IMG/VR virus record: IMGVR_UViG_643886092_000009
Source of the DNA: an uncultured virus (IMG/VR IMGVR_UViG_643886092_000009)
Taxonomy: Duplodnaviria; Heunggongvirae; Uroviricota; Caudoviricetes
DNA length: 64,000 nucleotides
Strand: one strand, 5' to 3'
This document shows, in pieces, positions 1-63,013 of this stretch. A program made the position numbers and the translations under genes. The notes under the pieces are model-generated. The model ran no database searches, was not told the DNA's origin, and saw only the letters and a list, made by a program, of their open reading frames with translations. Position 1 is the stretch's first letter; the number at the start of each line of letters is the position of its first letter.

Positions 1-95
1 GGGACATATGTTTGTCATATGGATGAGAGATATGATAATAAAACAGTAGAAGAGTTATGGGAGTTGTTAAGGGGTAGTAAGGGAGGAAGAAAGTT

Positions 96-425
96 ATGCT
101 ATCAGGATTAAAACGGTTATTCAAACCAAATAAACAAGCGATGAAAGAGAAAGATATCATTATAAATATTAAGGTTATGCAAAAAGATAGAAAGAAACTA
201 GAAACTGAAAGAGCATTAAAGATTGATGAAATGTGCGAAACAGTAAAAGGTTTATCAAAAGAAAACAAAGATGTAGTAAGTACAAAACTAACAAATGATA
301 TTATGGAAATCAATGCACAAATTGACCCTAAAATTGAAGAATGTAACTTGTATATTCAAGAGCAGTTAGATAAAGCAATATACCTAAAACTAGATGTAGA
401 ATATATTAAAGAAATGGTAAGCTAA
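96..425 (+). CDS. hypothetical helical protein
   Basis: 109-aa ORF with GGGAGG RBS. Confidence 0.75.
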   Translation: MLSGLKRLFKPNKQAMKEKDIIINIKVMQKDRKKLETERALKIDEMCETVKGLSKENKDVVSTKLTNDIMEINAQIDPKIEECNLYIQEQLDKAIYLKLDVEYIKEMVS

Positions 426-429
426 CTAG

Positions 430-609
430 ATGGGTTTTCTAACAGACTTTATTATTTTATCAGTAGTACCAAGTATAGCGTTATTGTTAACAAAGAAGTT
501 TCCAATGAAACTAAGAATTGTATCAGTTATCATATGGGTTATCATTGTATGTATACTATTAAACACAGAAGCATATAAAGTAGACGGATGCTTAAAAGGT
601 TGTAAATAA
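430..609 (+). CDS. small membrane protein (59 aa, not in ORF track)
   Basis: ATG430-TAA609, MGFLTDFIILSVVP..., two hydrophobic stretches, fills the gap between co-oriented genes. Confidence 0.55.
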   Translation: MGFLTDFIILSVVPSIALLLTKKFPMKLRIVSVIIWVIIVCILLNTEAYKVDGCLKGCK

Positions 610-623
610 GAGAGGGTAATTAA

Positions 624-962
624 ATGAGTACGGAACTTCAATCTATGCAATTAATAGAGAAAATAGTAGAACATAAGGTTAAACTTCTATTACTTAGAGC
701 AGAAGAACAAAAGCTAGTTGAGTTTGAAGAAAATCATTTACGTGTAAACGGATTACAGTTACATATACCAAGTGTCGTAGCACATACAGAGAAAACATTA
801 GAAATTAGAAAAGAATATGCAAACAGAATAAAAGCAGTAGGAAAACAGAATGAAAAAGTAATGACTCTATTAAATGCCATGTACCCAAACAAGGAAGAAT
901 TGGAGAGAACACTTAATAGTGAAACAGTAAAAGCGTATCAATCAGGAAAGTATTCCATATAA
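624..962 (+). CDS. hypothetical coiled-coil protein
   Basis: 112-aa ORF with RBS; weak resemblance to 1286..1603. Confidence 0.75.
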   Translation: MSTELQSMQLIEKIVEHKVKLLLLRAEEQKLVEFEENHLRVNGLQLHIPSVVAHTEKTLEIRKEYANRIKAVGKQNEKVMTLLNAMYPNKEELERTLNSETVKAYQSGKYSI

Positions 963-977
963 AAGGGGTAGGAAGTT

Positions 978-1289
978 ATGTTAAACTTTACAAAAGCAGT
1001 AGTAAAGCATATGCAGAAGTATATGAATGAGTTAAAGGACTTGAATGCAGAGGAAGAACGAGTAGTTACAGATTTAAAATTCGTAATGGAAACAAGAAAG
1101 AAAGTAAACGATATTTTAGGTATTTTTGAAGCAGAGGAAGAGTTATTAAACAAGAGAGTACATTTTAATAAACAAAAGAAACTAGTATGGTCAAAATTAT
1201 TAGCGGTGGTAGAGTTTGCAAGTGAATTAGATGCAGAGGAAGAAATGAAACAAATGATTGAAACGATTATGAAAGGTAGAGGGATATGA
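978..1289 (+). CDS. hypothetical coiled-coil protein
   Basis: 103-aa ORF with RBS. Confidence 0.75.
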   Translation: MLNFTKAVVKHMQKYMNELKDLNAEEERVVTDLKFVMETRKKVNDILGIFEAEEELLNKRVHFNKQKKLVWSKLLAVVEFASELDAEEEMKQMIETIMKGRGI

Positions 1290-1603
1290 CAAATAAGGAA
1301 AGTATCATAAACGCCTTAGTAAGATGTCATAATGCAATCGTCCAGTTAAAGGAACTAGAAGAGTTAAGAAAAGAAGCGGTAGAGATTGATTCTACTAATT
1401 TAAACTTAGATTATATCATGAAGAAGCATAATGAAACAGTACGAGTTCAAGAAATGTATAATAGAAACATTGAAAAAGAGTATGCTAGTTATCAAGCTAT
1501 ATTAAAACTAGCAGAAGAGTTAGGGTATAGTGAGAAAGAGTTAAAACATAAAAGTAAGTTAAGAGTAGAAGAAATAATCAAGTCAGCGGAGAAAGAAGCA
1601 TAA
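1286..1603 (+). CDS. hypothetical coiled-coil protein
   Basis: ATGA overlap with the upstream gene. Confidence 0.75.
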   Translation: MTNKESIINALVRCHNAIVQLKELEELRKEAVEIDSTNLNLDYIMKKHNETVRVQEMYNRNIEKEYASYQAILKLAEELGYSEKELKHKSKLRVEEIIKSAEKEA

Positions 1604-1628
1604 GTTAAAATAGAAACGAGGGGTAATT

Positions 1629-2963
1629 GTGGTTGTTAATTTAGATTTTGCTTTAGAGGGGGATAAAGTTGTACACATTAAAGACAGACTATCTAGAGAT
1701 ATGACTTACAAATGCCCTTTTTGTGGAGACGAAGTAGGTTACAGGAAGGGTAGTGAAAGAGAGCATTGTTTTTACCATAAAAATCTGGAAACTTGTAACC
1801 CTACTAAAGAAACATTACTTCATTATGATTCAAAACATTACCTTTCTAATTTTATTAATAATACGGATTATAGAGTAATAGGTAAAGACTTGTATTTTAC
1901 AGTAAATTGGTCTTTACTAGATGCAGACTATTATAAGATTTTAAAGAATTTAGGAATGACAATGTATTCTATATCTTTGAAGGAACTTTTAAGTTATTAC
2001 TCAACTTTCTACTCCGAAGTAGAGAAGACTGTTTCTACTTTTAAAGCTGATGTTTGTGTTGTAAATAAGACTTATAGTACAAACCCTCTAGTATTTGAGA
2101 TATTCGTAACACATAAAAATGAGGAAGAAAAAGTAAAATATTTAAAAGACAGTAATATACCTTATTTAGAGTTAAAACCAACAAGAACAAGTGAAGGTTT
2201 TATTTATGAAGTAGTAGATTTTAATTTAGAAGACTTTTTAGAATATAAATATAGTACGTTGAGAGAATCTATATTGAATTTAGTATATAAAGACCAAAAA
2301 GAAGAATTAAAGAGTAAAGTATCAGAAGAAGTAAGAGTTACAATAAAAGAAGAACTTGAAAAAGATATTAAAAATGAATTTTTAATGGAAGCTAGAAAAG
2401 ATATTTCAAATATAAACCTAAGAGATTTCATAAAGAAATCTTTGTATAAAGAAATGAATAGTATAGATTGTCTAAATAGTAAAGTTAAAAACAGACCTTT
2501 AAAGAGAAGAGAAAGATATTATAATTTCGAAACTAAGATTCACAAAGGTAATAAGATACTAATAGCCAACATGGGAAATTATTATGTAACTGACCCTTTA
2601 AATATGCTGAGTAGTTTAATTAATCAACTATCGAACCACTATGATATTGAGATTCTTATTGCAGACATACCTAATTATAACAGAACTTCAAATAGGGAAG
2701 AGGTAATAGGTTTTAATTTAATGTTACCTAACGAAAAATCAACAGGAATACAGTTGAAAAGTATTATGTTATCTTCATTAGATTACTTATTTTCAAATCC
2801 TGAACTACAAACTACAAAGCTAACTATATATGGTATAGACTCCAAAGGTAAATGGGTGAAAACAACGAGAGTTAAAAGGGACAAGATAAGTAGTGTAATA
2901 GAAGCTTATAAGAACGCAGGTATGGGATACCGAAGTCATAAAATAGAAGAATTACCGTATTAG
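1629..2963 (+). CDS. CoiA-like nuclease (N-terminal Zn finger plus PD-(D/E)XK-like domain)
   Basis: YKCPFCG...HCFYH...ETLLH and KADV...VFEIFVTH motifs, as in CoiA-family proteins. Confidence 0.65.
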   Translation: MVVNLDFALEGDKVVHIKDRLSRDMTYKCPFCGDEVGYRKGSEREHCFYHKNLETCNPTKETLLHYDSKHYLSNFINNTDYRVIGKDLYFTVNWSLLDADYYKILKNLGMTMYSISLKELLSYYSTFYSEVEKTVSTFKADVCVVNKTYSTNPLVFEIFVTHKNEEEKVKYLKDSNIPYLELKPTRTSEGFIYEVVDFNLEDFLEYKYSTLRESILNLVYKDQKEELKSKVSEEVRVTIKEELEKDIKNEFLMEARKDISNINLRDFIKKSLYKEMNSIDCLNSKVKNRPLKRRERYYNFETKIHKGNKILIANMGNYYVTDPLNMLSSLINQLSNHYDIEILIADIPNYNRTSNREEVIGFNLMLPNEKSTGIQLKSIMLSSLDYLFSNPELQTTKLTIYGIDSKGKWVKTTRVKRDKISSVIEAYKNAGMGYRSHKIEELPY

Positions 2964-2976
2964 GAGGGGTAGAACA

Positions 2977-3867
2977 GTGTCAGAAGTACACAAATGTAAT
3001 AACGGTCAAAAGTTTGATAAACAATTAAGAAAATTAGTTCCATGTGAAATATGTAAAAGAGAACGTAAAAATGAAGTACGTGATGGGATTGTAAATCAAC
3101 AAACTGGCAATCGTGAATCGCTATCTATTCATTTAGGAATTGACCAAAGATACGTTTCAGATATGTATAGTCAAGAAGCGATTATTGGTACGACAGACTT
3201 ATACTACCTTGAAGACAACTCTGTATATGAGTTTAATGCAGTAGTAGAAGCGTTAATGGCTGGTCTAACTGGTGGTCAACTACCTGAGACTTCATTTGTT
3301 ATGTATGCAGGTCGTCATGCTGAATTACAGAAACTAGCTTATTGTTTCTTAGCATCAGCTTACAAAGGGTTATTAACGGTAGGTAGAGTGCTAACAGCTA
3401 GAGAGATTCGAGTAAACAAATACAAAGAAGATTTTGATGAGTATTACAAGAAAGACATTATTGTAGTAATTATGACAGATGATGCAGATAGTGTAACTTT
3501 CGGTGAAGTACAAGGGTTTATGCAAGAGCGTTCATTAAACAATAAACCTACAATCGTATTATTAAGTAATCGTAGAAACTTTACATTAACAATCGGTAGA
3601 CTTTGTAGTCTGAGCGAAGCAAGATATGATTTAGGGGTATTTATCGGTGTAAACTATAAGCAAGGTTTAGATATGTCAGAAGAAACTATCAAAATTGCTA
3701 CAAAAGCCTTTAAAGTATCAAATGAAACTTTAGGTACAAATCAGAAGTTAGAAGATATTATGAGAATACCGAATGAGAATCTAAAGACTACGGATGCTGA
3801 AATGCAGTCATTTGATATGGATAAATTCACAAAAGGAAACCTAAACTTCAATGGTAAAGGAAGTTAA
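2977..3867 (+). CDS. degenerate DnaC/DnaI-like helicase-loader homolog
   Basis: N-terminal Cys pairs (HKCNN...PCEIC) and DnaC-like C-terminal ER..NNKPTIVLLSN; no canonical Walker A. Confidence 0.4.
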   Translation: MSEVHKCNNGQKFDKQLRKLVPCEICKRERKNEVRDGIVNQQTGNRESLSIHLGIDQRYVSDMYSQEAIIGTTDLYYLEDNSVYEFNAVVEALMAGLTGGQLPETSFVMYAGRHAELQKLAYCFLASAYKGLLTVGRVLTAREIRVNKYKEDFDEYYKKDIIVVIMTDDADSVTFGEVQGFMQERSLNNKPTIVLLSNRRNFTLTIGRLCSLSEARYDLGVFIGVNYKQGLDMSEETIKIATKAFKVSNETLGTNQKLEDIMRIPNENLKTTDAEMQSFDMDKFTKGNLNFNGKGS

Positions 3868-3869
3868 AT

Positions 3870-4142
3870 ATGTTAAACTTTGTAGTATCTCATATGGTTA
3901 CAATTTCTTGGATAATTAGCTTTTATTTCTTTATTGATTCTATCATTCAGTTAAACAATAAAGAAAAGAGGAAAGAAGAAGAATTTAACAAAATGGTAGG
4001 TAAGAAACACAAAGACCTATTTACAGACTTTGCACTTAAATTTGTTATCGTATTCTCGATAGGGTTGTATGGTGTTTATACAAACACGTTTGAAACAGCA
4101 ATTCAATCTTTATTAAACTTTAAATTACACTTGGAGGGGTAG
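3870..4142 (+). CDS. small membrane protein
   Basis: two hydrophobic segments. Confidence 0.7.
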   Translation: MLNFVVSHMVTISWIISFYFFIDSIIQLNNKEKRKEEEFNKMVGKKHKDLFTDFALKFVIVFSIGLYGVYTNTFETAIQSLLNFKLHLEG

Positions 4143-4144
4143 TC

Positions 4145-4285
4145 ATGGGAAACTTAATAAACAGTTTCCTATTTTCTTTTGTCTTTTTAGTTGTTGCATC
4201 CTATAGCATGTTTTCAATGAGAGACATAAAGACAATGGATAAAGAACATTTTAAATTACCATCAGAACAGAAAGAAGGTTTATAA
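4145..4285 (+). CDS. small membrane peptide (46 aa, not in ORF track)
   Basis: GGAGGGG RBS, ATG4145, TAATG overlap with the next gene. Confidence 0.55.
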   Translation: MGNLINSFLFSFVFLVVASYSMFSMRDIKTMDKEHFKLPSEQKEGL

Positions 4286-4554
4286 TGGAATTTGTATACA
4301 TACTAAACTCCATATTCGTTGTGATTGTATGGATTATTACAATTAAAACTTGTATTTCTTTCCTACAGACATTATCTTTTAATAAGAAAGTAATGGATAA
4401 AGAACAAGGGTATGATGATAAAGAATTATTAAATATAGAAAACAGTCAGAATAAAGTAAAGAACCAATTAATATTTTTCCTTGTTATTAATGCTTTATAT
4501 GTAACTACAGATGGATTTGCTTATACTGTACATGCATTACGTAATTTAATTTAA
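4285..4554 (+). CDS. small membrane protein
   Basis: two hydrophobic segments, same layout as 3870..4142. Confidence 0.7.
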   Translation: MEFVYILNSIFVVIVWIITIKTCISFLQTLSFNKKVMDKEQGYDDKELLNIENSQNKVKNQLIFFLVINALYVTTDGFAYTVHALRNLI

Positions 4555-4631
4555 ATAATTATCTAAACTGTATTTATAAGTTAAACTTTGTATAAAAATA
4601 TACAGACAGAAAAATAATTTTGTGTTTAGTA

Positions 4632-4660
4632 TTGATTTATACAGTGAGATATGGTATACT
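4632..4660 (+). promoter_or_regulatory. sigmaA-type promoter
   Basis: TTGATT-N17-TATACT with extended -10 TG. Confidence 0.7.
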
Positions 4661-4697
4661 ATGTATATAGTAAGATACTATATTGGAGGTTTTAATC

Positions 4698-8001: not shown

Positions 8002-8074
8002 GTAAGAGCAAGAATATAATTGGGGTAGTTGGGTTGCTATCCCTTTCTTGTCATAAAAACTGGAGGTGTATGTA

Positions 8075-10931: not shown

Positions 10932-11048
10932 ATTAGTATAAGGTTGAAAGAGTAAGTCTGTTAAAATTTTTCGAGGTTAAATGGGTTAACGTTAAATTTT
11001 AGTCAGACGGAATTATATAGAATGTAGAAATTTTAAGGAGTGATTCTT

Positions 11049-13220
11049 TTGTCACAAAACTACGGTAATAATAGTATAGACAGTTTAGAGGGTGCGGAAC
11101 GTGTACGTAGACGTCCTGCGGCGGTATTAGGTTCTAGTGGTATTGAGGGTGCTAGACATGGTGTAACTGAAATTGTAGGTAACTCTGTAGATGAAGGAAC
11201 AGCAGGGTTCGGCTCAAAACTAGATATTAATTACTTCAAAGATGGAAGTATCTCTATTAGAGACTATGGTCGTGGAGTACCAATGGGGTATAACGAAAAC
11301 AAAGGAATTTCAAACTGGTTCTTAGTTTTCAATGAAATGTATGCAGGTGGTAAATATAAAGATTACCAAGAAGAACTAAGAGCAATTAAAGACTGGTCTA
11401 CATTTAATCCAACTGATTATAACTACTTGTTCTCAATTGGTCTAAACGGACTTGGTGCGGCATCAACCCAGTATACGAGTGAGTTCTTTGAAGCAATCTC
11501 TATTACAGACGGTATTGCAACTAAAATGGAATTCCGTGGTGGATATCCTATTTTAAAAGATGCAAACGGTAATGAAGTACATGCAATCATTGGTGAAGAG
11601 AGACTATTAGAAGAACATGGTATCGTATTAAAAGAATACGTAGCAGAAACTTATGAAACAGAAGAGGAAAACGGTACATACATTCACTGGAAACCAGATA
11701 TTAGAGTATTCTCTGATGTTGATATCACACTTGGTTGGATTAAAGACGTATGTGAGTCTGTAGCATATATTAGTGGTTTAGATGTAAACCTATATGATGA
11801 AGCAACAGATACAATGCATGAATATCAAAGTGGTACAATCAGTGATTTAAACTTAATTTTAAATGAGAAAAACTTAGTAAATGAGGATTCTCCTTCTGTA
11901 TATGAAGACAATGATATTACACATGGTAATGTAAAACAAAATAATGAAAACTTCATTTATGTATTTAAAGCTGATGTATCTGTAGTAAGAACAAGAGAAA
12001 AAGGTAAAACTGTATGTTTCCACAATGCAATTAAAATGAAGGGTGGAGCGCAATATCGTGCAGTTGATTCAGCAGTAGCAGACTTTGTAATCGGCTTAGG
12101 AAACACAAAAGGTGTAAAAGTAGTCGAGCGTGATTTCGAAGGAAAATTAGGGGTAGTCGTTAAGAGTTATTCAAACGTTGCTTCTTATAAAGGTCAAACG
12201 AAAGACGAAGTAGATGATAACTTTATCTACCGTGATTTAAAAACTATCATTTACAGACTTATTAATACAGAATACCATAAAGGTAATAAAGACATCATTG
12301 AGTTTGTTGATAAGGTACTTGAAGAAGCTGAACTACGTATCACTTTACAAGAACAAGCTAAAATGTTACGTGAAGTTAAGAAAACAAGTCGTACTCGTAA
12401 ACTACCTGAGAAGTTTTTACCTTCAAAACTATTTAAAGAAAAAATAGTAAAGAAGTCGGAACTATGGATTGTAGAGGGTGACTCGGCTAAAACTTCTGTT
12501 AAGAATGCACGAGACCCTCTATTCCAAGCGATTTACGCTGTTAGGGGTAAAGTAACAAACGCCCTAAAAGCTTCATTTAAGAAGTTAATGGAGTCAGAAG
12601 AGATTCGAGACATCTTTTCACTATTAGGAACTGGTATGGATGTAGAACTGTTAGATGATAATGAGTTCGATATTGATGCTTGTCGTTTTGAGAAAATTAT
12701 TATCGGAACGGATGCCGATGAAGATGGATATCAAATTCGTGTGTTATTATTCGTAGTCTTTTGGGTTCTTGCACCTGAGATTATCAAACGTGGTATGCTT
12801 TATATTGGAGAAACACCAAAATTCGGTATTAAACTATCAAATGGTGAAATGGTATATGCTATCAATGAAGTTGATAAAGCAGAACGAGAAAAGGAATATG
12901 CAGGTCAGATTGTAAAAGTAGAGCGATATAAAGGTTTAGGTGAAGTAAACGCTGATGTATTAGGGTTCACTACACTAGCCCCTGAAACTCGTAATTTAAT
13001 TCAGATTAAATTAGACCCTGCTGACCACATTTTATCCGAGTTTGTTGAAACATTATTCGGTAAAGACCCGTATAAAAAGCGTAAAGAAACAATGTTACGT
13101 GTATTGGGTAGTGATGCAATGGATATGTTTAATGATACAGACGAAAAAGAAGAATTTAGCATTGTAGATGTTTTAGATGCAGACGATGTAGAAGAGGAAA
13201 ACGAATTGGAAGTCATTTAA
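11049..13220 (+). CDS. gyrB: type IIA topoisomerase B subunit (GyrB/ParE family)
   Basis: GHKL motifs EIVGNSVDE, DYGRGVP, GLNGLG; TOPRIM IVEGDSA and TDADEDG; RYKGLGE; TTG start after AAGGAG (GTG at 11040 is the alternative). Confidence 0.92.
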   Translation: MSQNYGNNSIDSLEGAERVRRRPAAVLGSSGIEGARHGVTEIVGNSVDEGTAGFGSKLDINYFKDGSISIRDYGRGVPMGYNENKGISNWFLVFNEMYAGGKYKDYQEELRAIKDWSTFNPTDYNYLFSIGLNGLGAASTQYTSEFFEAISITDGIATKMEFRGGYPILKDANGNEVHAIIGEERLLEEHGIVLKEYVAETYETEEENGTYIHWKPDIRVFSDVDITLGWIKDVCESVAYISGLDVNLYDEATDTMHEYQSGTISDLNLILNEKNLVNEDSPSVYEDNDITHGNVKQNNENFIYVFKADVSVVRTREKGKTVCFHNAIKMKGGAQYRAVDSAVADFVIGLGNTKGVKVVERDFEGKLGVVVKSYSNVASYKGQTKDEVDDNFIYRDLKTIIYRLINTEYHKGNKDIIEFVDKVLEEAELRITLQEQAKMLREVKKTSRTRKLPEKFLPSKLFKEKIVKKSELWIVEGDSAKTSVKNARDPLFQAIYAVRGKVTNALKASFKKLMESEEIRDIFSLLGTGMDVELLDDNEFDIDACRFEKIIIGTDADEDGYQIRVLLFVVFWVLAPEIIKRGMLYIGETPKFGIKLSNGEMVYAINEVDKAEREKEYAGQIVKVERYKGLGEVNADVLGFTTLAPETRNLIQIKLDPADHILSEFVETLFGKDPYKKRKETMLRVLGSDAMDMFNDTDEKEEFSIVDVLDADDVEEENELEVI

Positions 13221-13497: not shown

Positions 13498-15735
13498 GTG
13501 GTAAAGGAATTACATGATGCTGAAAACTTCACATTAGAAGAGAAAGACATTGATAGTTTAACAGAAGAGGATTTATTTAAACTGTTACACTTGGAAAATA
13601 CAAAAGGTTCAGACGTGCATAATTCGGGTTTTCAGTACCTAGTTAGAGGTTACATTGATTATGCACGAGAAGTATTAACAAACCGTGCTTTAGAGGATAT
13701 TCGAGACGGTTTAAAACCAGTACAACGCTATGCATTATATTGGATGTTTAAAGAGAAAGCCAAAGACATGATTAAGTCAGAACAAGTCGGAGCAGGGGTA
13801 CTAAAGTATCACCCTCATAATGCAGACTCGGCTTATGAATCTCTAACAAAAATGGTAGAATCAAACGGTACATTTTACGTTCCACTTTTAATTGGTAAAG
13901 GTGAACTAGGTAAAAAGTTCTCGAACGGTAGTCCAGCCGCATCACGTTATACGTCAGTTAAGTTCCATGAAAACGCAAAAGAAATGTTTACCGCAATGGA
14001 CGGAATTGATATGGTATGGAACTTTGATGATACAGAACGTGTTCCTGAGGTGTTACCTGCATCTGTACCTTACATCTTAATGAAGTATGCAGACGGTATC
14101 GCAGTTGGTTTCTCTACGAAATCACCATCATTCTTACCACAAGATGTAACAAACCTAGTACGTGAGTACATTAGAGACGGTAAATGTTCTACTATGATTG
14201 TACCAGACTTCTCAACTGGTGGCTTCATTTCTTATACAGAGAAAGAGTTAGAAAAGTTAATGAAAACTGGTAAAGGTAGTTTCATGACTCGTGGTAAAGT
14301 ATTTATAGACGGTAAAAACATCGTAGTTACAGAAGTACCACAAGGGGTAACAGTCGAAAAGATTATGAAAGAAATTGAAAAGGCTGAGATTCAAGGTATT
14401 ACACCAAACGGCTATAGTGATTTAACAGGTAAAGATGGTTGTTACTTTGAAATCACTTGTCGTGCGAAAAACCGTGTACAAGAAGTATTAATGGAGTTAT
14501 ACACAAAGACTTCATTACAAAAGAAATTCAACTCAAACCTGTTAGCAGTAGAAAGCAAAAAACTAGTTATCACAGGGGTATGGGGTATTATAGACCGTTG
14601 GGTAAAATGGCGTAGAAAAGTTTTAACTCGTCAAACTCGATTAGATTTAGCTAAGTTAGTAGAAAGTGCAAAATACACAAAAGGTTTCATCGACTTACTA
14701 GCAATTGAAGGTGCTAGAGACGAGATTGTAGAACTTACTACTAAGAAATCAGACAATGATGCTATCAAGCGTATTCAAGAGTACATTCAATGTGAACGTG
14801 ATGTTGCGGAATGGATTATCAAACGTAGATTAAACCAATTCCGAAATGATAATAAGTATATTAATCAATATGCAAACTATCAGATTGAAATTGCTAAACT
14901 AGAAAAGTACCTAGAAAACATTGATACGTTAATTCTAGAAGATATGGATAGATTTGATTTATTAGTATCTAAGAAACACGAACGTAGAACTGAAATTACA
15001 AACAAGGTATATGAAGTAGAAACAGTAAAAGAGGATGAAATTGAGATTCCTGTAAGTGAGTGTTACTACCAAATTAAAGATGGATTCTTACGTAAACTTC
15101 ACGTTAAACCAACATCAGGTGAAGGAATCATCTTTGAGGGGTATACAAACTCTACTATCATTGCTTTATCTAGTGAAGGTGAAATCTTCCGTATTTACGG
15201 AAACGATATTAATTACCTAACAGGAAACGATATCGGAACTTACATTCCTACGTATTCCGGTTTAGCAAATGCTCAACATGTACAACTGATTTGGGCAACT
15301 GTATGTGATGAGAAGAAATATGTATTAACATATGAAGACGGATTTGTTGGATTCCTAGATACGGCTGAGTTCCTAGTAGGTGCAATTAAGTCTAAGTACT
15401 TACGAAACGGTATTTCAGCACATGCGGACAAGCTAACAGACGTGAGAGAGTACCAAGAAGATTCTGTTATCGTAGTAGAAACTCACGACAAGTTATATGC
15501 TTGCGCTCATCTAGACAGCATTAAAATGAAGTCTAGAACAGCAAGAACTCGTGTATGGTATACGGATAACCTATATGATTCAGCAATTATTCCAATGAAT
15601 GAAATTTCAAAACGTGTTCCGAATTACATGACCCTATTTAATAAGAAGCCAGTAATGTATAATGGTGAAATGAACCTATGGGGTGAAGTAAGGGTATACG
15701 AAGAAAATTCAGAGGAACTATTAGCAAGCAGTTAA
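13498..15735 (+). CDS. gyrA: type IIA topoisomerase A subunit (GyrA/ParC family)
   Basis: RALEDIRDGLKPVQR, KYHPH, catalytic AASRYT, GIAVG, PDFSTGG; no recognisable GyrA-box. Confidence 0.92.
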   Translation: MVKELHDAENFTLEEKDIDSLTEEDLFKLLHLENTKGSDVHNSGFQYLVRGYIDYAREVLTNRALEDIRDGLKPVQRYALYWMFKEKAKDMIKSEQVGAGVLKYHPHNADSAYESLTKMVESNGTFYVPLLIGKGELGKKFSNGSPAASRYTSVKFHENAKEMFTAMDGIDMVWNFDDTERVPEVLPASVPYILMKYADGIAVGFSTKSPSFLPQDVTNLVREYIRDGKCSTMIVPDFSTGGFISYTEKELEKLMKTGKGSFMTRGKVFIDGKNIVVTEVPQGVTVEKIMKEIEKAEIQGITPNGYSDLTGKDGCYFEITCRAKNRVQEVLMELYTKTSLQKKFNSNLLAVESKKLVITGVWGIIDRWVKWRRKVLTRQTRLDLAKLVESAKYTKGFIDLLAIEGARDEIVELTTKKSDNDAIKRIQEYIQCERDVAEWIIKRRLNQFRNDNKYINQYANYQIEIAKLEKYLENIDTLILEDMDRFDLLVSKKHERRTEITNKVYEVETVKEDEIEIPVSECYYQIKDGFLRKLHVKPTSGEGIIFEGYTNSTIIALSSEGEIFRIYGNDINYLTGNDIGTYIPTYSGLANAQHVQLIWATVCDEKKYVLTYEDGFVGFLDTAEFLVGAIKSKYLRNGISAHADKLTDVREYQEDSVIVVETHDKLYACAHLDSIKMKSRTARTRVWYTDNLYDSAIIPMNEISKRVPNYMTLFNKKPVMYNGEMNLWGEVRVYEENSEELLASS

Positions 15736-16505: not shown

Positions 16506-16595
16506 AGGTTAAGTAAACAGATAGATAAATAGGCGAACAGCGATAATAAAGAGATAAAACTAGGCAATGTTTTAAGTTTGAAAGGCGGTAGTATT

Positions 16596-18041
16596 ATGGC
16601 ATTAGAGCCTACAGAAAGACTGGAGTATTTTTCAGACATCATTTTAAGCAGAATGTTAACATCAAGTGATGATAGAGACTTGATTATTACACAATTACAA
16701 CCTGAGGTATTTACAAACGAGAATTTCTTAATCTATTCCGTTATGTATAGCTTCAAAGACAGGGGTATTGTTCCTGATAAAGAGTTTTTAAATATGTATT
16801 TATCTCGTAATACGAAATTAATTACACAAAACCCACAAAACATAGAAGCTGATTTATTTAGTGATACAGGGGATGATGTAGTAAGTTCATTTATTAGTGC
16901 TACAATAAACAAGTTAGTAAGACTACAGGGTGAAGACTATTCAAAACAAAATATAGATTTAATATTAGAAAAGTTCCGAATTGATTTCAAAACTATATAC
17001 CAAACAAAGGTGTTAGACGGTGCGAAGTTAATTCTAAACGATAAGCTACAAGTAGGGTATAAAACGTATAGTGGTCAAGAAGATAGTGATTTATACTATC
17101 AAGAACAAATGACGAAACTGAATACATTAATCAACAGTGATGCAAGTGAAGGTTTCGTAGATGATACAATAGACGGTATGGATGATTCATCAAGAGTTAT
17201 GCCTGTAACTGTTAGTGACTTCCACTACTTAGATTTCTTAAACAAACATTATGGCGGTATCAAAACTGGTTACTTCTATAACATCATGGCTCCACCTAAG
17301 AGTGGTAAGTCTAAGTTCTGTTATAGAGCGATTCATACCGCTAGGGTTAAGTATGGCGTAAACTGTGGATTCTGGGCAAACGAGGGTGGTCGTAAAAAAG
17401 CCCAAGCAGAAATGAGAGCAATTCACTTTGATTACTATTACAATGAGAAACAAGGGGAAGATTATGCTCAACTATCAGGTCAAGATATCTTAGATGATAA
17501 TTTCCCTTCACAACAATATCGTGAGTTAGAAGCAATTAGTCGAGCAGACTTATTTACAAATCCAAACCACGGTAAAGTTATTTTCATTGAAGAACCTTTA
17601 GAGATTGAACATTATATTCATCAATTAACATTAGCAACAAAGCGTTATAACTTAAAGTTAATCGTAGTCGATTACCTACAGTTAATGGGTAGTAAAGGTA
17701 ATAAAATGAGTAAGAATGAGCGTATCGGTGTTGCATATCAGCAAACCCTAGCGTTCATCGGTAAGTATCAAGTAGCGTTTATCAGTCCTTCACAGTTCAA
17801 ACAGGAATTCTTAAAAGAGATTGATAAGGGTGGAGACGTAGATACTCGATTAGGTGGCGGTGAGTCAGCAGAGATTGTACGTACTCCCGATGTAAACATA
17901 GCCTTATACGGTACACCTACCGATATTGACAATAATAAACTATCCTTACTAAGTATCCCTTCTCGTGTAGCTAGACCATTTGAGAAGCGTGATATCTATG
18001 TGGATTTGGGGTATTGTTTCTATTCAGATATAAATTGGTAA
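16596..18041 (+). CDS. dnaB: DnaB-like (SF4) replicative helicase
   Basis: Walker A APPKSGKS, Walker B IVVDYLQLM, SPSQ motif. Confidence 0.85.
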   Translation: MALEPTERLEYFSDIILSRMLTSSDDRDLIITQLQPEVFTNENFLIYSVMYSFKDRGIVPDKEFLNMYLSRNTKLITQNPQNIEADLFSDTGDDVVSSFISATINKLVRLQGEDYSKQNIDLILEKFRIDFKTIYQTKVLDGAKLILNDKLQVGYKTYSGQEDSDLYYQEQMTKLNTLINSDASEGFVDDTIDGMDDSSRVMPVTVSDFHYLDFLNKHYGGIKTGYFYNIMAPPKSGKSKFCYRAIHTARVKYGVNCGFWANEGGRKKAQAEMRAIHFDYYYNEKQGEDYAQLSGQDILDDNFPSQQYRELEAISRADLFTNPNHGKVIFIEEPLEIEHYIHQLTLATKRYNLKLIVVDYLQLMGSKGNKMSKNERIGVAYQQTLAFIGKYQVAFISPSQFKQEFLKEIDKGGDVDTRLGGGESAEIVRTPDVNIALYGTPTDIDNNKLSLLSIPSRVARPFEKRDIYVDLGYCFYSDINW

Positions 18042-41857: not shown

Positions 41858-41866
41858 GAGGTTACA

Positions 41867-43194: not shown

Positions 43195-44667
43195 ATGTCA
43201 AAAGGAATTGAGTTTGAAATTGGTAGTTTTCTAGGTGAGTTTGATGTAACAGACTATACAATGAGTCAAGTTGAGAAGTTAGAAGATTACATTGAACAAG
43301 CCAATACAATAGCAAACATGAAAACTGGTGAGTTACTAGTTGTAGACGCTATTTATAATGAAATGGTATCTATTTTACGTCAAGTAAAACCGGATTCACA
43401 TTTATTAACTGAGTTGTGGGAAACTGGTGATGAAGATAACGTTGAAGGTAATCAGTATACAGATTTATTAGTTAAAAACCCGATGAAATCTATCTTAACG
43501 GTTAAGTCTTTTAATAGTGCTGAAATGGGTATCTTTAAAAGCAATTATCCTGAGGATGAACCTGTTACATTACATGGTAGTTTAAAAGAGAACGGTTGGG
43601 GTATCCGTATTGCTTATATGGACGGTGAATATGTATCAGCAACTTCAAGGGCGAGAGCAAGTGCAGGTAAAGATTTAACAAGGCAAGTTGGAGTTGTATT
43701 AGAAAAGAAAGGTTTATTAACGTTAGAAGATGTACCAGACGGATTAGCTGAAGTACGAGGTGAGTTATTACTATCTTTTAACAACTTGGATGAAGCACGA
43801 GCATACAATCCAAACATCGTAAGTGCATTCAGTGGGGTAGCAAGTATGGCACGAGACAGTGCAAGTGAAGAGGAAAACGCTTTACTTGATTTCGTAGCCT
43901 ATACAATAATCCACGAAGACCTAGAATTTGAATCTAAGTCAGAAGAGTACAGGTACTTGAAGGAGTATCTAGGTTTCGAAGTTCCTTTAAACTGGACAAT
44001 CGAAGATGTAACAATAGATGAACTAGAAGAAGTACTAGAAGACACACTAGCTGAAATTGAGGAAGAGGTATTCAATGAAGCAGAACCGTATGAGTACTTT
44101 ACAGATGGGGTAGTTATTCAGATAGACGATTATGCTACATTCCATGCTTTAGGTGATGATGGAGGTAAATATAATAAAGGAAACATTGCATTAAAAGTAG
44201 GAGCATGGTCACAAGATAATTACTATGGATATGTACAGTATATAGACTTTTCAAAAGGGAAATCAAAACTAAGTCCAGTAGCAATTTTAGGTACTGAGCC
44301 AAACCAAGCAGTATTCGAAATAGACGATGAAATATATCAAGGTTTAGACGAAGTAATGGAGTATCACGATATCGAAACTCTAAACTTCAACTTAGCTGAC
44401 TGTGTTAAGAATTACAAAGACTTAGGAGTAGGTACAGCAAGTGGAAATAAAGTAAGACGGGTTCCATTATATGAAGTAGCAAACATGATTTTACTTGGTA
44501 TAACGCCAAACTCTATTTTATACTTCAAGTACGGTGGAGAAGCAGGGGTAGTGCCTTGTCGTGAAGACGGCTCTTTAATCAAGGATATTAAAGGTGTTAA
44601 TTATATAGACGGATTATTTACAGAGGAAGACATTATAGGTTCTGAAGAAGGAGAAGAATGGGCTTAA
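43195..44667 (+). CDS. ligA: NAD-dependent DNA ligase-like protein (adenylation plus OB region only)
   Basis: DAIYN, PMKSI, SLKENG, ATSR, EVRGE, TDGVVI, IALK; no Zn finger, HhH or BRCT. Confidence 0.75.
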   Translation: MSKGIEFEIGSFLGEFDVTDYTMSQVEKLEDYIEQANTIANMKTGELLVVDAIYNEMVSILRQVKPDSHLLTELWETGDEDNVEGNQYTDLLVKNPMKSILTVKSFNSAEMGIFKSNYPEDEPVTLHGSLKENGWGIRIAYMDGEYVSATSRARASAGKDLTRQVGVVLEKKGLLTLEDVPDGLAEVRGELLLSFNNLDEARAYNPNIVSAFSGVASMARDSASEEENALLDFVAYTIIHEDLEFESKSEEYRYLKEYLGFEVPLNWTIEDVTIDELEEVLEDTLAEIEEEVFNEAEPYEYFTDGVVIQIDDYATFHALGDDGGKYNKGNIALKVGAWSQDNYYGYVQYIDFSKGKSKLSPVAILGTEPNQAVFEIDDEIYQGLDEVMEYHDIETLNFNLADCVKNYKDLGVGTASGNKVRRVPLYEVANMILLGITPNSILYFKYGGEAGVVPCREDGSLIKDIKGVNYIDGLFTEEDIIGSEEGEEWA

Positions 44668-53034: not shown

Positions 53035-53325
53035 AGAGCCTATAGACCAATATCTTTTCTTTTAAGATAAAGGGACTATAGGCTCTATGTGAAGGAACTC
53101 GGACAATTCTTCATATGTCAGTAAAGAATCATCCTTCAGCGAGAATGGGGTAAACTCGGTATGGGGTTAGGTACATCAATGCCTAAAACCAAAAATTGAT
53201 GTATAGAACTGAGCGTTAGAGTGTATAGAATGTTTACCCCTTAGTTTAAACGAGTATTGCAAATGTAAGTACTGAGTTTATAAGAAACCGACTATCAATT
53301 AGAGGTAGTCGGTTTCTTCATTTAT
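53035..53325 (+). ncRNA. candidate structured RNA with pseudoknot
   Basis: five consecutive hairpin domains; G-U pairs favour the + strand; terminator-like 3' hairpin. Confidence 0.5.
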
Positions 53326-57583: not shown

Positions 57584-57957
57584 CAGCAAGACTATATAAA
57601 GAAGTAGGAAGAACATTAAGAGTACAGAGAAAGCAACAAGGTCTATCATTAGACTCCGTATCAAAACAGGTAGGTATCAGTATAAACTACCTTTCTGAGT
57701 TAGAGAAGGGTGATAAAGGGAAAGTACCTTCTGATAATGTCCTTCAACGGTTAATAACTATATTAAACTTAAATGAGAAAGAGTTATACGTGGGTTTCGG
57801 AAAGATTCCATTATCGGTAGTAGAAGAGTTACAAAGTAATGAGAAACTATTAAGTATATTATATGGAGTAATTCACAATCCAAACGTATCAAGAGAAGAC
57901 TTCTATAATGACATGCAGAAACTATATTTTAAATACGCAAGTAGGTCACAGGGGTAG
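57580..57957 (+). CDS. XRE-family HTH regulator
   Basis: GLSLDSVSKQVGISINYLSELEKG. Confidence 0.88.
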   Translation: MTARLYKEVGRTLRVQRKQQGLSLDSVSKQVGISINYLSELEKGDKGKVPSDNVLQRLITILNLNEKELYVGFGKIPLSVVEELQSNEKLLSILYGVIHNPNVSREDFYNDMQKLYFKYASRSQG

Positions 57958-58020
57958 GTCGTTAGACTTACCTCTTTTCTTTATCCTGTACTTGACAAAT
58001 CAAGAAACTTATGTTATAAT
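57951..58020 (+). promoter_or_regulatory. terminator plus sigmaA promoter cassette
   Basis: GGGGTAGGTC / GACTTACCTC hairpin with T-tail, then TTGACA(57992)-N17-TATAAT. Confidence 0.85.
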
Positions 58021-60289: not shown

Positions 60290-61207
60290 ATGGAGAAAGT
60301 AAGCAAAGAAAGAGAACAAACTGGGTTTTTCATTCAAGTATTGGAAGGTGAATTAGAAAAACGCAAAAACCTTTCAGAAAAAGTATTAGAAACTCACTCG
60401 AACGGGGTATCGAATCTACATATCTTTCCTTATCGTAAGAAAGTAGAGTTAAAACAAGATATTTTAGATTTAGACGTGATGTCTTATACCTATAGTTATT
60501 TAGAAGAAGATATAAACAAATATACTTCTTTACGTAAACTGATAAAGAAAGCCTTTAACGAGGAAGTTTTCGATTCCTTAACGTTTAAGGAGAAGGAAGA
60601 GTTGTTCTTCAAGCAAGGAAACAATGAAGTAGTCTATACAGATAAAAATTACAAGAAACATACAGTTACAAAAGAAGAATATGATTTATTCTTTAAGAGA
60701 CGAAAAGCATATAATCAAGCGATGGAATTTTACAATGTTAGAGAACATGTAAACTCCGAAGATTACTTACCAATTAACAGAGCCACAAAGCATTATATTA
60801 AATTTAATAAAGAACAAGTATTGGTTTCACTTAGACTTGAGTCATCTAATTATAGAACAGGTAGAATTACAAGTAAATTCATTTCTTGTCTCCAAAACTT
60901 TATAAAAGATACGGGTATTGAAATTGTGAACATTGACCAAACGGAAAATGCTACTTATGTAAACCTTTTAAGTGAGAAAGAGAATTTCATGTTAAACGGT
61001 TTAAGAGAAGTAATTAGTCAATGTGAGTTATATAGAACAGAAGAAAGTTTCAATTACAACTTAGAAGTAGAAATAGAACGAAATTTACATCAAGAAAACT
61101 ATAGTAAAGATTGGTATTACTTCTTTACTGGAAATAAGTACGAAGAATTAAAAGATATGTTTAAGAAACAGGAATCAAACTTCTTAGCACATCCATTATA
61201 TAAATAA
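60290..61207 (+). CDS. family I paralog 3
   Basis: YRKKV, LPINRAT, IEIVN, YVNLL. Confidence 0.85.
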   Translation: MEKVSKEREQTGFFIQVLEGELEKRKNLSEKVLETHSNGVSNLHIFPYRKKVELKQDILDLDVMSYTYSYLEEDINKYTSLRKLIKKAFNEEVFDSLTFKEKEELFFKQGNNEVVYTDKNYKKHTVTKEEYDLFFKRRKAYNQAMEFYNVREHVNSEDYLPINRATKHYIKFNKEQVLVSLRLESSNYRTGRITSKFISCLQNFIKDTGIEIVNIDQTENATYVNLLSEKENFMLNGLREVISQCELYRTEESFNYNLEVEIERNLHQENYSKDWYYFFTGNKYEELKDMFKKQESNFLAHPLYK

Positions 61208-61224
61208 AAGTAGGAGGGTAAACA

Positions 61225-61440
61225 ATGAATCACATGGATAAAGTTTGTATCATACTTGGGGTAGACTTATTTGAAAAGTTTAATATCATAAAAGAGCGTC
61301 CTAACATATTCCAAAAGAATATCAGAAACCCTTACTACTTTACTGACGAGGGTTTAATGAATAGTTTCGGTGTGTTAGATAATCAATTTCTAGCAGACTT
61401 ACTTGTTGGTAGTTTAAAACTAGAGAAAGTAAACAGGTAA
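61225..61440 (+). CDS. hypothetical protein
   Basis: AGGAGG RBS. Confidence 0.7.
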   Translation: MNHMDKVCIILGVDLFEKFNIIKERPNIFQKNIRNPYYFTDEGLMNSFGVLDNQFLADLLVGSLKLEKVNR

Positions 61441-61441
61441 G

Positions 61442-61819
61442 GTGGTTAAAATGGACAAAACCGTTTATGTAGAACTAAGAGAATCACCAACAACTGGATA
61501 TATTTCAGTTTCCAATATGTTTCACATGAAAGACCTAGAATCTAAGTATGAACACTACGTAGAAATATGTAAGAGTATTGGTAACAGGTATGAGTCTTTG
61601 AAGGGGTATGAACTATCATTTCTATTATTAACTGTCACATATGATGGTAGAAAAAGAAGTATAACCGATGAAGACATTATGAAGGCTATGCTTAAACTAG
61701 GTTACGTTACACAAGTAGGAAACAGTATGTTAGGTGGATTTTATTTAAAAACACCTAAGTTAACTCAATTATTAGCAGACAAACTAGCTGAAAGAAAGTC
61801 TTTAGTTGGTATAATATAA
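61442..61819 (+). CDS. hypothetical protein
   Basis: 125-aa ORF. Confidence 0.7.
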   Translation: MVKMDKTVYVELRESPTTGYISVSNMFHMKDLESKYEHYVEICKSIGNRYESLKGYELSFLLLTVTYDGRKRSITDEDIMKAMLKLGYVTQVGNSMLGGFYLKTPKLTQLLADKLAERKSLVGII

Positions 61820-61889
61820 GGGGTAGGTCATTAGACTTACCTCTTTCTTTATACCTACATTTGACATTTTAGGTAACTTATGGTATACT
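61820..61889 (+). promoter_or_regulatory. terminator plus sigmaA promoter cassette
   Basis: GGGGTAGGTC / GACTTACCTC hairpin, then TTGACA(61861)-N17-TATACT. Confidence 0.85.
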
Positions 61890-61972
61890 ATAATAGTAAA
61901 GTTATGAGATTTATAGAGGTAGTTATCTTTCTAAACCATACCTTTACAAATAAAACTGAAGAGGTGTTTTAA

Positions 61973-63013
61973 GTGTCAAACTTAAACGTAACAAACCATG
62001 ATGATGTAGCTTATACTGAATTAACAGGCAATAGTCTTTTAGTTCGTATAACACCAAACGATTCTACATGTTTTCGTAATACTCTAGTAACAAAACTGAA
62101 TATTGCATTAGGATTTGATATTCTTGATAATGTAGACACATCAAATGTTATTATGTACAGAAAAGATGTATCTATAGACAATGTAAGTATTAAGAGTTCT
62201 GAGGAATACTGTAAGTTCTTTAGAACAGATTATAATACAAAGGTATTAGATGTATTAGACTTATCACTAAGAGAGTCCATTTCCAGTAGAAGATTAGATA
62301 CAGAAGAGAGTGAGTATCTAGAGCAGTGGGGTATCGAAGAAGGAACTGATATAGAAGTTCATTTAAAAGAAGCCTTAAAACTGTTTTTAAAATATAATGG
62401 TTCAGATTATGCATTAAACGTAGCAGGTTTAAATACGAAGCATACTTTTGAAGTAGGAGACGTTGAAAGATATTTAAAATATTTATCAGAAGATAATAAA
62501 CTTAGTTTATTCAAATTAATACGTTCAAGATTAAATACAAACAATAACCTACCAATTAACTATGCTACAAAAGATTTTATTAAGGTCAAGAAAGGAAAAA
62601 CTTTGGTAAGCGTTACAGTAAACGATGATTACGATTCAAGTGAGTTAATCAATAAATTCATTACAGAGTTGAATAAACTACATGAAGGTGTAGTAGATTT
62701 TGTTAACTTTGCAAAAGAACGAGGTAGAATTCATTTTAACATTTTATGTGACAATAAAGACGCACAAGATATGTTAGACTTAATTGCTCTTTTATATACT
62801 AACTTATATGGAGAAACAAGCCTAGGTATAAGAGAAGACTTTTATTGTAATATTGAAATTGAGAAAAGTCTATCTCATGAGGGTTATGAACGTGATATCT
62901 ATTGTATTGTTCAGGGGTATGAATTTGAACCCGTTATAAGTTTCTTAGAAGAGTTAAGAGCAGAAGACGAGTCAAGATACGAAACAGATATGGTTAAGCT
63001 AATTATAGGTTAG
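61973..63013 (+). CDS. family I paralog 4
   Basis: YRKDV, LPINYAT, IHFNILC. Confidence 0.85.
   Translation: MSNLNVTNHDDVAYTELTGNSLLVRITPNDSTCFRNTLVTKLNIALGFDILDNVDTSNVIMYRKDVSIDNVSIKSSEEYCKFFRTDYNTKVLDVLDLSLRESISSRRLDTEESEYLEQWGIEEGTDIEVHLKEALKLFLKYNGSDYALNVAGLNTKHTFEVGDVERYLKYLSEDNKLSLFKLIRSRLNTNNNLPINYATKDFIKVKKGKTLVSVTVNDDYDSSELINKFITELNKLHEGVVDFVNFAKERGRIHFNILCDNKDAQDMLDLIALLYTNLYGETSLGIREDFYCNIEIEKSLSHEGYERDIYCIVQGYEFEPVISFLEELRAEDESRYETDMVKLIIG

Follow-up and report, generated by a model that had tools for sequence, protein, structure and literature searches.

The window analysed here, a stretch of 64,000 nucleotides filed as an uncultured virus (IMG/VR IMGVR_UViG_643886092_000009), corresponds to bases 8299–72298 of NZ_CP013277.1, the 349,600-bp plasmid pAM65-52-2-350K of Bacillus thuringiensis serovar israelensis AM65-52. 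This record is equated with the conjugative plasmid pXO16 in the available part of a review (PMC6199540). On one of its strands the window carries a dense array of the hexamer GGGGTA, which is the subject of this study, and we find that this array is genuine, under strong selection, specific to the plasmid, strictly polar and evenly spaced across the whole of pXO16. Positions are those of the window unless they are marked as positions of the record. A megablast search of plasmid records returned ten ~350-kb Bacillus thuringiensis plasmids that match the window at 100% identity, and 20 of the 24 sequencing runs listed contain the window stretch, 16 of these with at least half of its words.

The window has a GC content of 32%, its + strand is G-rich and C-poor, and GC skew is positive in all 16 four-kb bins. 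All of its long open reading frames (ORFs) lie on the + strand, among them genes for a DnaB-like helicase, a stand-alone primase-type zinc-binding domain, a DNA ligase and two topoisomerase subunits (Table 1). Neither tRNA genes nor Rfam families were found in the window. Across the whole 349,600-bp record, all 455 annotated features lie on the + strand, a common orientation that is also recorded in PMC6199540, where it is taken to suggest a phage-like nature. Both GC skew and AT skew stay positive in each 10-kb bin of pXO16, so that skew defines neither an origin nor a terminus. In the part of PMC9673590 that was available, the replication origin, relaxase and oriT of the plasmid are described as still to be identified.

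GGGGTA is enriched on one strand throughout pXO16

In the window GGGGTA occurs 119 times, with 118 copies on the + strand and a single copy on the – strand (Table 1). A preliminary description of the window, made by eye, had put the + copies at about a hundred, with about ten expected from base composition and one TACCCC near 53235. The exact counts agree well with it: strand-specific base composition predicts 11.0 copies on the + strand and ~1.75 on the – strand, and all eight positions that had been given as examples carry the word. The + strand is enriched ~10-fold, and the – strand shows no clear depletion. None of 100 dinucleotide-preserving shuffles reached 119 copies, counted over both strands (13.7±3.7, largest 25). 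In k-mer counts, by which the preliminary description had proposed to judge the excess, GGGGTA is the top hexamer of the window by order-0 z-score (32.2). A maximal-order Markov model takes up most of this excess (118 observed versus 88.3 expected), because its two component 5-mers, GGGGT and GGGTA, are in excess too; 118 of the 134 GGGGT 5-mers in the window extend into GGGGTA. Similarly, 118 of the 171 GGGG runs continue with TA, and GGGGTG, GGGGTT and GGGGTC occur 5, 11 and 0 times, respectively. The 118 + copies are preceded by A or T in 112 cases and followed by G or T in 102, so that the consensus of the array reads [A/T]GGGGTA[G/T].

The array extends over the entire plasmid. On pXO16, 657 copies lie on the + strand and 5 on the – strand, compared with 61.2 and 11.7 expected by composition, corresponding to a mean density of ~1 GGGGTA per 530 bases, a polarity of 99% and only a weak depletion of the – strand. 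Each of the 34 ten-kb bins (record 1–340,000) contains 12–27 + copies, 0–1 – copies and a positive GC skew. A polarity switch along the replicon, which the preliminary description had considered, is absent from all 34 bins.

Codon usage and ribosome-binding sites do not account for the array

The copies were assigned, independently of annotation, to positions of ribosome-binding-site (RBS) type, to the interior of long ORFs by frame, or to neither. In the window these classes comprise 27, 79 (46/21/12 by frame) and 12 copies; the corresponding numbers for pXO16 are 105, 469 (295/85/89) and 83. After synonymous-codon shuffling, the genes of the window are expected to hold 23.3±4.5 copies (largest 34, n=200), compared with 82 observed (frames 55/19/8). 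The genes of pXO16 hold 469 copies (308/81/80 by frame), compared with 112.7±9.3 (largest 131, n=60), and every frame is enriched. The preliminary description had placed the word in RBSs and, as GGG-GTA, inside coding sequences, and both settings are present in the window, with the 27 RBS-type copies and 55 in-frame Gly-Val copies. It had also allowed that the enrichment might vanish once codon usage and RBS positions were controlled for; in both sets of genes it persists.

The choice of codons follows the same pattern. GGG accounts for 161 of the 1105 Gly codons in the window, and 55 of the 120 Gly-Val pairs are written GGG-GTA. In the genes of pXO16 the sister words fall below the shuffle expectation (GGGGTT, 30 versus 52; GGGGTG, 16 versus 28.7), and the dipeptides Gly-Val (569 versus 441) and Gly-Tyr (362 versus 259) exceed theirs. 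Outside genes the word is also frequent. A 4.4-kb stretch directly after the Toprim gene (record 162,886–167,324), which contains no ORF of at least 80 aa on either strand on an otherwise densely coding plasmid, has 8 copies on the + strand and 0 on the – strand, compared with 0.42 expected.

These controls bear on a passive, reader-less origin of the array, as a by-product of codon usage, Shine–Dalgarno sequences, repeats in proteins or mutational bias. Many copies are indeed GGG-GTA codons or RBSs, the + strand is G-rich and C-poor, and some copies lie in the repeated helix-turn-helix (HTH) modules encoded at 39840–43142. However, the synonymous-shuffle nulls fail by more than 30 standard deviations on the plasmid, all frames and non-coding DNA are enriched, and a similarity of 70% or more to another flank is seen for only 14 of the 657 flanks. 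Furthermore, plasmids of the same host with similar codon usage lack the enrichment, and the under-dispersed spacing described below is not produced by composition. We therefore regard a passive origin as excluded. RBSs, codons and terminators look like cheap places for a word that is wanted for another reason, and the observations support GGGGTA as an element-specific, strand-polar signal at the DNA level.

GGGGTA at Shine–Dalgarno positions and in terminator-like hairpins

The RBS-type copies of the window lie 5–10 nt ahead of start codons and probably double as Shine–Dalgarno sequences, and six copies supply the stop codon of the upstream gene. Five hairpins of the window open with GGGGTAG (6190, 8022, 55913, 57951 and 61820) and are closed through G·U pairs, in line with what the preliminary description had reported for terminator stems at the sites it named. 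On pXO16, 14 terminator-like hairpins are opened by GGGGTA, and the perfect complement occurs in none of the 14 stems; with 14 hairpins and a C-poor + strand, an excess of G·U-closed stems over what compositional bias gives cannot be shown. The array does not behave as a DNA uptake sequence (DUS/USS), a kind of word that is dispersed over both strands and commonly sits in terminators in inverted pairs, since the two strands hold 657 and 5 copies and all 14 stems lack perfect inverted pairs.

Such positions could point to a signal at the RNA level, in which GGGGUA in long co-directional transcripts would be read by a plasmid factor, or weakly by the 30S subunit, as a processing, stabiliser or translation signal. 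The STAB-SD element of B. thuringiensis cry3A mRNA acts as a stabiliser against 5'-exonuclease, and proteins of the SpoVG family, a member of which is encoded at record 4545–4889, bind nucleic acids. The copies lie on the sense strand of a replicon with 455 co-oriented annotated genes, and both the hairpins and the copies at Shine–Dalgarno distance would suit this role. However, only 105 of the 657 copies are at that distance, and pairing with the anti-Shine–Dalgarno sequence leaves the invariant A unpaired and unexplained. GGGGTG, which would pair better, is rare on pXO16 (23 versus 657 GGGGTA) and depleted in genes. The canonical internal Shine–Dalgarno word GGAGGT also falls short of its synonymous-shuffle expectation in genes (37 versus 73.8), in contrast to the four-fold enrichment of GGGGTA. 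In addition, the host ribosome, RNA polymerase and RNases also serve three plasmids without the enrichment, and the density of the word is kept in the 4.4-kb ORF-less stretch, though this stretch may be transcribed. Taken with these points, an RNA-level role appears unlikely.

The copies are evenly spaced

The gaps between GGGGTA copies on pXO16 have a coefficient of variation (CV) of 0.71, compared with 1.00±0.04 for random placement (minimum 0.87, n=2000), and the longest gap of 2071 nt is shorter than the smallest longest gap of the random sets (2431 nt). Both tails of the distribution are thinned, with 31 gaps under 100 nt versus 112 expected and 13 gaps over 1500 nt versus 39 expected. 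GGGGTA has the lowest gap CV among the 469 hexamers of pXO16 with at least 200 copies, and also among the 84 hexamers with 400–900 copies, whose median CV is 1.05.

The evenness could have resulted from RBS copies placed once per gene; this was rejected, as the RBS-type copies alone are clumped (CV 1.40). The non-RBS copies alone have a CV of 0.74, equal to that of random thinning. Because the RBS-type copies are clumped and the combined set is even, each class fills gaps left by the other. A site that is needed at intervals is expected to be evenly spaced, with few long gaps.

The enrichment is specific to pXO16

For comparison within the same host, we analysed the first 50 kb each of pBtic360, pBtic235 and pBtoxis, which are co-resident with pXO16. 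GGGGTA occurs on their sense strands 5, 6 and 5 times, compared with 4.6, 7.4 and 4.5 expected, and GGG-GTA pairs number 4, 3 and 5, compared with 3.8, 3.5 and 3.3. The word lies upstream of 0 of 29, 0 of 30 and 1 of 38 genes, respectively. Since all four plasmids share the host's ribosome, RNA polymerase, RNases, DnaG and AddAB, the reader of GGGGTA, or the need for it, belongs to pXO16.

This result bears on a Chi-like signal for recombination or nuclease control, read by the host AddAB or by plasmid enzymes, that would protect linear or single-stranded intermediates of replication or transfer. Like the Chi sites of RecBCD and AddAB, which act on a translocating enzyme, GGGGTA is a short, G-rich, strand-polar and over-represented word, and pXO16 encodes a UvrD-like helicase and an SbcC/SbcD-like pair. 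Chi is, however, a host property shared across host replicons, and a word read by the host should be favoured on co-resident replicons, whereas GGGGTA is confined to pXO16 among the four plasmids compared and stands at expectation on the other three. The B. subtilis-type Chi word is below expectation on the + strand (83 versus 146.8). Neither a density of one site per 530 nt nor the avoidance of close pairs is a known property of Chi and, should forks move with transcription, a sigma tail would by our reasoning need Chi on the other strand. We consider a Chi-like function very unlikely. Two other Firmicute Chi words, as well as the SRS and KOPS words, were checked on pXO16 together with the B. 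subtilis-type word, and all were rejected as matches to the array.

Relatives of pXO16 are few. A megablast search of window 20000–32000 against phages gave no match, GyrA-like and GyrB-like locus searches in viral contigs returned nothing, and neither did a PolA search in genome contigs or a Toprim alignment search in genome and viral contigs. A GyrA-like search of metagenome contigs found 7 loci at 25–29% identity, and GGGGTA is among the top hexamers in none of the 7. With tblastn, the plasmid matches were limited to 10 near-identical copies of pXO16 and two 215-kb plasmids of B. velezensis/B. amyloliquefaciens; all phage matches were below 60% identity (24–55% among the matches listed). 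By these searches, pXO16 appears to be nearly an orphan, although PMC6199540 reports diverged 'counterparts' of it in sv. yunnanensis, sv. pondicheriensis and HD1011.

The B. velezensis 215-kb plasmid NZ_CP076292.1 shares with pXO16 genes for the helicase, the zinc-binding-domain (ZBD) protein, the Toprim protein, PolA, the UvrD-like helicase and the topoisomerase, as well as a near-uniform gene orientation. The ZBD and Toprim proteins of the two plasmids are 23% and 26% identical, respectively. On the B. velezensis plasmid the ZBD gene comes immediately after that of the DnaB-like helicase, and ZBD and Toprim are split as on pXO16. In 141 kb of this plasmid GGGGTA is not enriched (68 versus 60.4) and GGGGTT is (112 versus 74.2±8.0). 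GGGGTTA occurs 56 times in its genes, compared with 25.2±4.5 (largest 36, n=100), and is distributed 67 versus 7 between the strands with a gap CV of 0.78. The top enriched hexamer of the plasmid is GGGGTT (144 versus 45.8, with 14 on the other strand). GGGGTTA may thus represent a weaker 'dialect', as if a diverged reader had coevolved with its word, a suggestion to which we attach little weight. NZ_CP076292.1 also carries a CBASS-like pair (SAVED and DncV-like), several DNA methyltransferases and YopX genes.

Candidate readers encoded by pXO16

The ZBD protein of the window (Table 1) matches the ZBDs of the primase structures 1d0q (E 6.5e-6; G. stearothermophilus) and 2au3 (A. aeolicus). With 1d0q it shares the unbroken stretch IFHCFGCGAGG, which surrounds zinc ligands three and four. 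As judged by domain matches, pXO16 carries the parts of a DnaG-family primase, CHC2 ZBD and Toprim, as separate genes, and its DnaG-type primase seems to be divided between a stand-alone zinc finger and a stand-alone Toprim protein. Further plasmid genes specify a family-A polymerase that includes a 3'-5' exonuclease, an RNase H and an ATPase of clamp-loader type; with the helicase, ligase and topoisomerase subunits, these proteins form a T7-like replisome set. The 291-aa gene that follows ZBD (26020–26895) was considered as the missing primase domain and rejected, having no Pfam or PDB match. The N-terminus of its product (GLDISKTSTG) and its Atlas neighbours suggest, as a lead only, a RuvC-like nuclease, and the B. 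velezensis plasmid has, at the corresponding place, a gene whose product begins with a similar motif.

A second candidate is the FtsK/SpoIIIE-domain protein encoded just upstream of the window (record 852–3182), in which the PF01580 motor spans residues 469–606 of 776. No match to FtsK_gamma, the winged-helix gamma domain, was found in this protein at E≤1. The preliminary description had proposed an element-specific orientation signal, possibly read by the primase zinc finger or by a translocase. The first part of this proposal stands, and the zinc finger is a genuine PF01807 domain that qualifies as the best candidate reader on circumstantial grounds; the translocase is weakened by the presence of the motor domain only and by the constant polarity.

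Table 1. Features of the GGGGTA array and genes of candidate readers and other replication proteins (window positions unless marked as record)
Feature	Position	Strand	Details
GGGGTA array, 118 copies	71..62919	+	mean gap 537 nt, longest gap 1453 nt; part of the 657-copy plasmid-wide array
Sole reverse-strand copy of the window (TACCCC on +)	53235..53240	–	between ORF end 53029 and ORF start 53471
RBS-type example	2966..2979	+	GGGGTAG, 7 nt from G-run to GTG start at 2977
Stop-codon example	4136..4147	+	TAG is the stop of gene 3870-4142; G-run 5 nt before next start (4145)
In-frame GGG-GTA (Gly-Val) example	12150..12155	+	inside GyrB-like gene
Closest copy pair of the window	14575..14587	+	7 nt apart, two different frames; gaps this short are rare
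Hairpin	8022..8043 (record 16320)	+	opens GGGGTAGT, closes GCTATCCC, one G·U pair, then T-rich run
Hairpin	57950..57975	+	AGGGGTAGGTC/GACTTACCTCT; motif TAG is also the stop codon of gene 57580-57957
Hairpin	61819..61844	+	stem identical to hairpin at 57950
GyrB-like type II topoisomerase subunit	11040-13220	+	3 internal GGGGTA copies
GyrA/ParC-like type II topoisomerase subunit	13498-15735	+	5 internal GGGGTA copies
DnaB-like replicative helicase	16578..18041 (RefSeq start = window 16596)	+	Pfam DnaB_C, DnaB; PHROG 19
Stand-alone DnaG-type CHC2 zinc-binding-domain (ZBD) protein, 190 aa	25402..25974	+	Pfam PF01807, E 1.9e-11, 44.1 bits (cutoff 24.9)
NAD-dependent DNA ligase	43195..44667	+	Pfam DNA_ligase_aden; PHROG 3869
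Toprim_2 protein	record 162,101-162,886	+	33.6 bits (cutoff 22.1)

As a G-rich, strongly strand-skewed short word on a plasmid with an FtsK/SpoIIIE-domain gene, GGGGTA resembles KOPS (FtsK) and SRS (SpoIIIE), by which a DNA motor is oriented. KOPS and SRS are 8-mers, far sparser than the GGGGTA array, and they switch strand at the terminus, whereas GGGGTA on pXO16 shows no switch. Since a system of the KOPS/SRS type needs this switch, its absence makes a translocase reading weaker; neither the gamma reading domain (at E≤1) nor a convergence of polarity on a terminus or dif site was detected. The SRS and KOPS words are themselves unremarkable on pXO16 (11 versus 6.8 and 1 versus 1.2, respectively).

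A related proposal is a directional cis signal for conjugative transfer or translocation, read on the transferred strand or on duplex DNA by transfer machinery such as the FtsK/SpoIIIE-type coupling ATPase or a putative nickase. The word would orient export or initiate it at many sites, as a distributed substitute for a single oriT. A strict polarity without a switch would fit one-way export, and the signal is specific to the plasmid. Transfer of single-stranded DNA by pXO16 is very fast, and the available portions of two reviews describe the plasmid without an identified relaxase or oriT (PMC9673590, PMC6199540). According to the same sources, oriT-less plasmids and chromosomal DNA are also moved by pXO16, at far lower frequency (PMC9673590, PMC6199540). 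DNA without the array still moves, which means that export does not depend on the word. In addition, the gamma-type DNA-reading domain was not found in the FtsK-like protein at E≤1, and the avoidance of close pairs answers no obvious need of a translocase. Coupling proteins are not known to read words scattered along DNA, and the clt/TRS sites of Streptomyces TraB occur in clusters. We hold a transfer signal of this kind to be improbable.

The presence of the word on one strand only also recalls programmed single-strand interruptions, like the nicks of phages T5 and tf, here made in the + strand. Possible enzymes are encoded by pXO16, namely a protein with ParB_N and HNH domains (54040–55908), a non-specific endonuclease (28567–29376) and a GIY-YIG protein (gene at record 289,972). 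By comparison, known nick motifs are longer and far sparser, and 657 breaks in one strand are hard to reconcile with supercoiling, with the transfer of an intact 350-kb strand and with a stable low-copy plasmid, making such nicks highly improbable.

A primase-site model for the array

Of the readings considered, we tentatively favour one in which GGGGTA marks the template initiation sites of the plasmid's own DnaG/T7-type primase, although we place its chances somewhat below even. In this model, the DnaB-like helicase would move 5'→3' along the + strand whenever that strand is single-stranded, carrying the primase along the lagging-strand template. The + strand would be exposed in this way as the lagging-strand template of forks moving with transcription and also on conjugative entry into the recipient, if + is the transferred strand. 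We infer the fork direction from transcription and GC skew, although gene orientation by itself may account for the skew. With 5'-GTA-3' as the sequence recognised by the zinc finger, primer synthesis would begin opposite T, and the 3' A would be left uncopied. Running into the G tract, the primase would synthesise a short C-rich RNA of the pppACCCC type, and the four Gs would stabilise a primer of 4–5 nt so that it stays annealed in 33%-GC DNA. The family-A polymerase of the plasmid would then take over from this primer, and the ligase would be part of the plasmid's own lagging-strand toolkit. As chance would place GGGGTA only about every 5.7 kb on the + strand, selection would have written it about every 530 nt, and the cheapest places for it would be Shine–Dalgarno positions, Gly-Val and Gly-Tyr codons, terminator stems and spacers.

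The model is compatible with what is described for primases. In the excerpts of PMC2978363 that were available, the primases of phages and bacteria begin synthesis at the central base of particular trinucleotides, and GGGGTA, ending in G-T-A, is compatible with the resulting 5'-N-pyrimidine-N-3' rule, a matter of compatibility only. Primases of the Firmicute class, among them the B. anthracis enzyme, use d(CTA) as well as d(TTA), and T7 primase uses d(GTC), with its H33A mutant shifting to d(GTA) and d(GTG) (PMC2978363). The specificity residues adjoin the third zinc ligand, and a ZBD can work in trans with a different subunit's catalytic domain (PMC2978363). On the template 3'-CTGGT-5', T7 gp4 makes pppAC, pppACC and pppACCA (PMC9198812).

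Priming is also relevant to the transfer of pXO16. The plasmid transfers single-stranded DNA, and plasmids mobilised by it need an intact single-strand origin in the right orientation, as described in the available part of PMC6199540. An incoming single strand in conjugation needs repeated priming, and priming on transferred DNA matters for pXO16. The array could then act as a distributed cis signal for conjugative establishment or transfer, in which hundreds of one-strand entry points replace a single oriT or ssi and are read on the incoming strand by the primase and perhaps by the transfer ATPase; to this extension we assign a low probability.

Several points weigh against primase sites. All genes and the GC skew are co-directional, so that readers coupled to transcription and readers coupled to replication are inseparable by sequence. 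A distance of 128 kb separates the genes for ZBD and Toprim, and joint activity of the two proteins is only presumed. Recognition of a trinucleotide alone would not require four Gs. The 'dialect' of the B. velezensis plasmid is weak, at 2–3 fold, in the one plasmid analysed. Finally, the primase words of T7 itself show little sign of selection: GGGTC occurs 39 times on the + strand (37.8 expected) and 55 times on the – strand, GTGTC has 43 copies (35.9 expected), an excess is seen for TGGTC alone (79 versus 35.9), and the three words together are spaced near-randomly (CV 0.92). In our reasoning, the T7 sites are unselected because a 48%-GC genome holds such sites by chance.

Other features of the window and of pXO16

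The 4.4-kb ORF-less stretch of the record is full of imperfect direct and inverted repeat families. Hairpin units of the form AGCATAGA...TTGTATGGTGT are present in at least 4–5 repeats, and a tandem AACTTACCAAT-type array lies near record 167.2 kb. The stretch is a candidate replication origin or non-coding RNA array.

In the window, four adjoining genes (225, 285, 157 and 215 aa), followed by a fifth of 211 aa, occupy 39840–43142. Their products consist almost wholly of tandem HTH modules (HTH_23, HTH_7, TetR_N), and several GGGGTAT copies lie inside the repeated modules. Two further runs of neighbouring genes near-equal in size, of ~190–230 aa (19111–25337) and ~100–150 aa (33188–37208), have no family match and may be the paralogue arrays mentioned in the review. 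The gene at 46467–47303 encodes an M15/VanY-type D-Ala-D-Ala carboxypeptidase, which PLSDB flags as a 'vanY' resistance gene at 35% identity; in this setting the product resembles an element-encoded cell-wall hydrolase more than a determinant of resistance.

Comparison with known systems and significance

Among known systems, the proposed primase sites are closest in form to those of T7 gp4, which are 5'-GGGTC, TGGTC and GTGTC-3' and give pppACCC, ACCA and ACAC. In both cases a short G-rich word ending in T plus an uncopied base is read, or for pXO16 would be read, by a DnaG-family zinc finger on a DnaB-type helicase. pXO16 encodes the same set of parts, and the C-rich primers would likewise be passed to a family-A polymerase. 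Unlike the array on pXO16, the T7 sites show neither strand polarity nor even spacing and, taken as a set, are not in excess, and the T7 primase is one polypeptide fused to its helicase, whereas ZBD, Toprim and helicase are three genes on pXO16.

The word also shares features with the d(CTA) and d(TTA) sites of Firmicute DnaG (S. aureus, G. stearothermophilus, B. anthracis), as described in the excerpts of PMC2978363, having a 3' TA, a start at T and an uncopied A. By comparison, GGGGTA has a G before TA and a tract of four Gs. The host-type trinucleotides occur every few tens of bases (CTA 5107 and TTA 11647 times on the + strand) and need no selection, unlike the pXO16 word.

Plasmid primases such as Sog of ColIb-P9 and TraC of RP4 are carried into the recipient, and ssi/sso signals start the complementary strand on transferred single-stranded DNA. 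The ssi and sso signals are single, long, folded elements, whereas GGGGTA is a 6–7-nt word dispersed 657 times. An asymmetric hexamer confined to one strand of a replicon with co-directional genes is also known from the EcoP15I sites of phage T7, all of which have the same orientation, explained by loss from one strand to escape the Type III enzyme. On pXO16 the main effect is instead a 10-fold gain on the + strand, with only a weak deficit on the – strand (5 versus 11.7).

We found no description of the GGGGTA word in the pXO16 literature searched, which included the available parts of the reviews PMC6199540 and PMC9673590, and primary sequence papers may mention it. The single 'motif' in the available text of PMC6199540 concerns pBtoxis.

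The array offers a concrete handle on the replication and transfer of pXO16, a plasmid with a long history of study that is amenable to bench work. It predicts which strand becomes single-stranded and in which direction, and it names the ZBD, the Toprim protein and the DnaB-like helicase as candidate readers. If the copies serve as distributed entry points, they would explain how a 350-kb plasmid without a recognisable relaxase or oriT reaches nearly all recipients within minutes, and why DNA that lacks the array moves 10^5–10^6 times less well. Should the primase model fail, the array would still be an undescribed directional signal of a conjugative megaplasmid. If the model holds, pXO16 would be the first case known to us of a replicon that has rewritten its genes, down to the usage of Gly-Val and Gly-Tyr, for the sake of primase sites.

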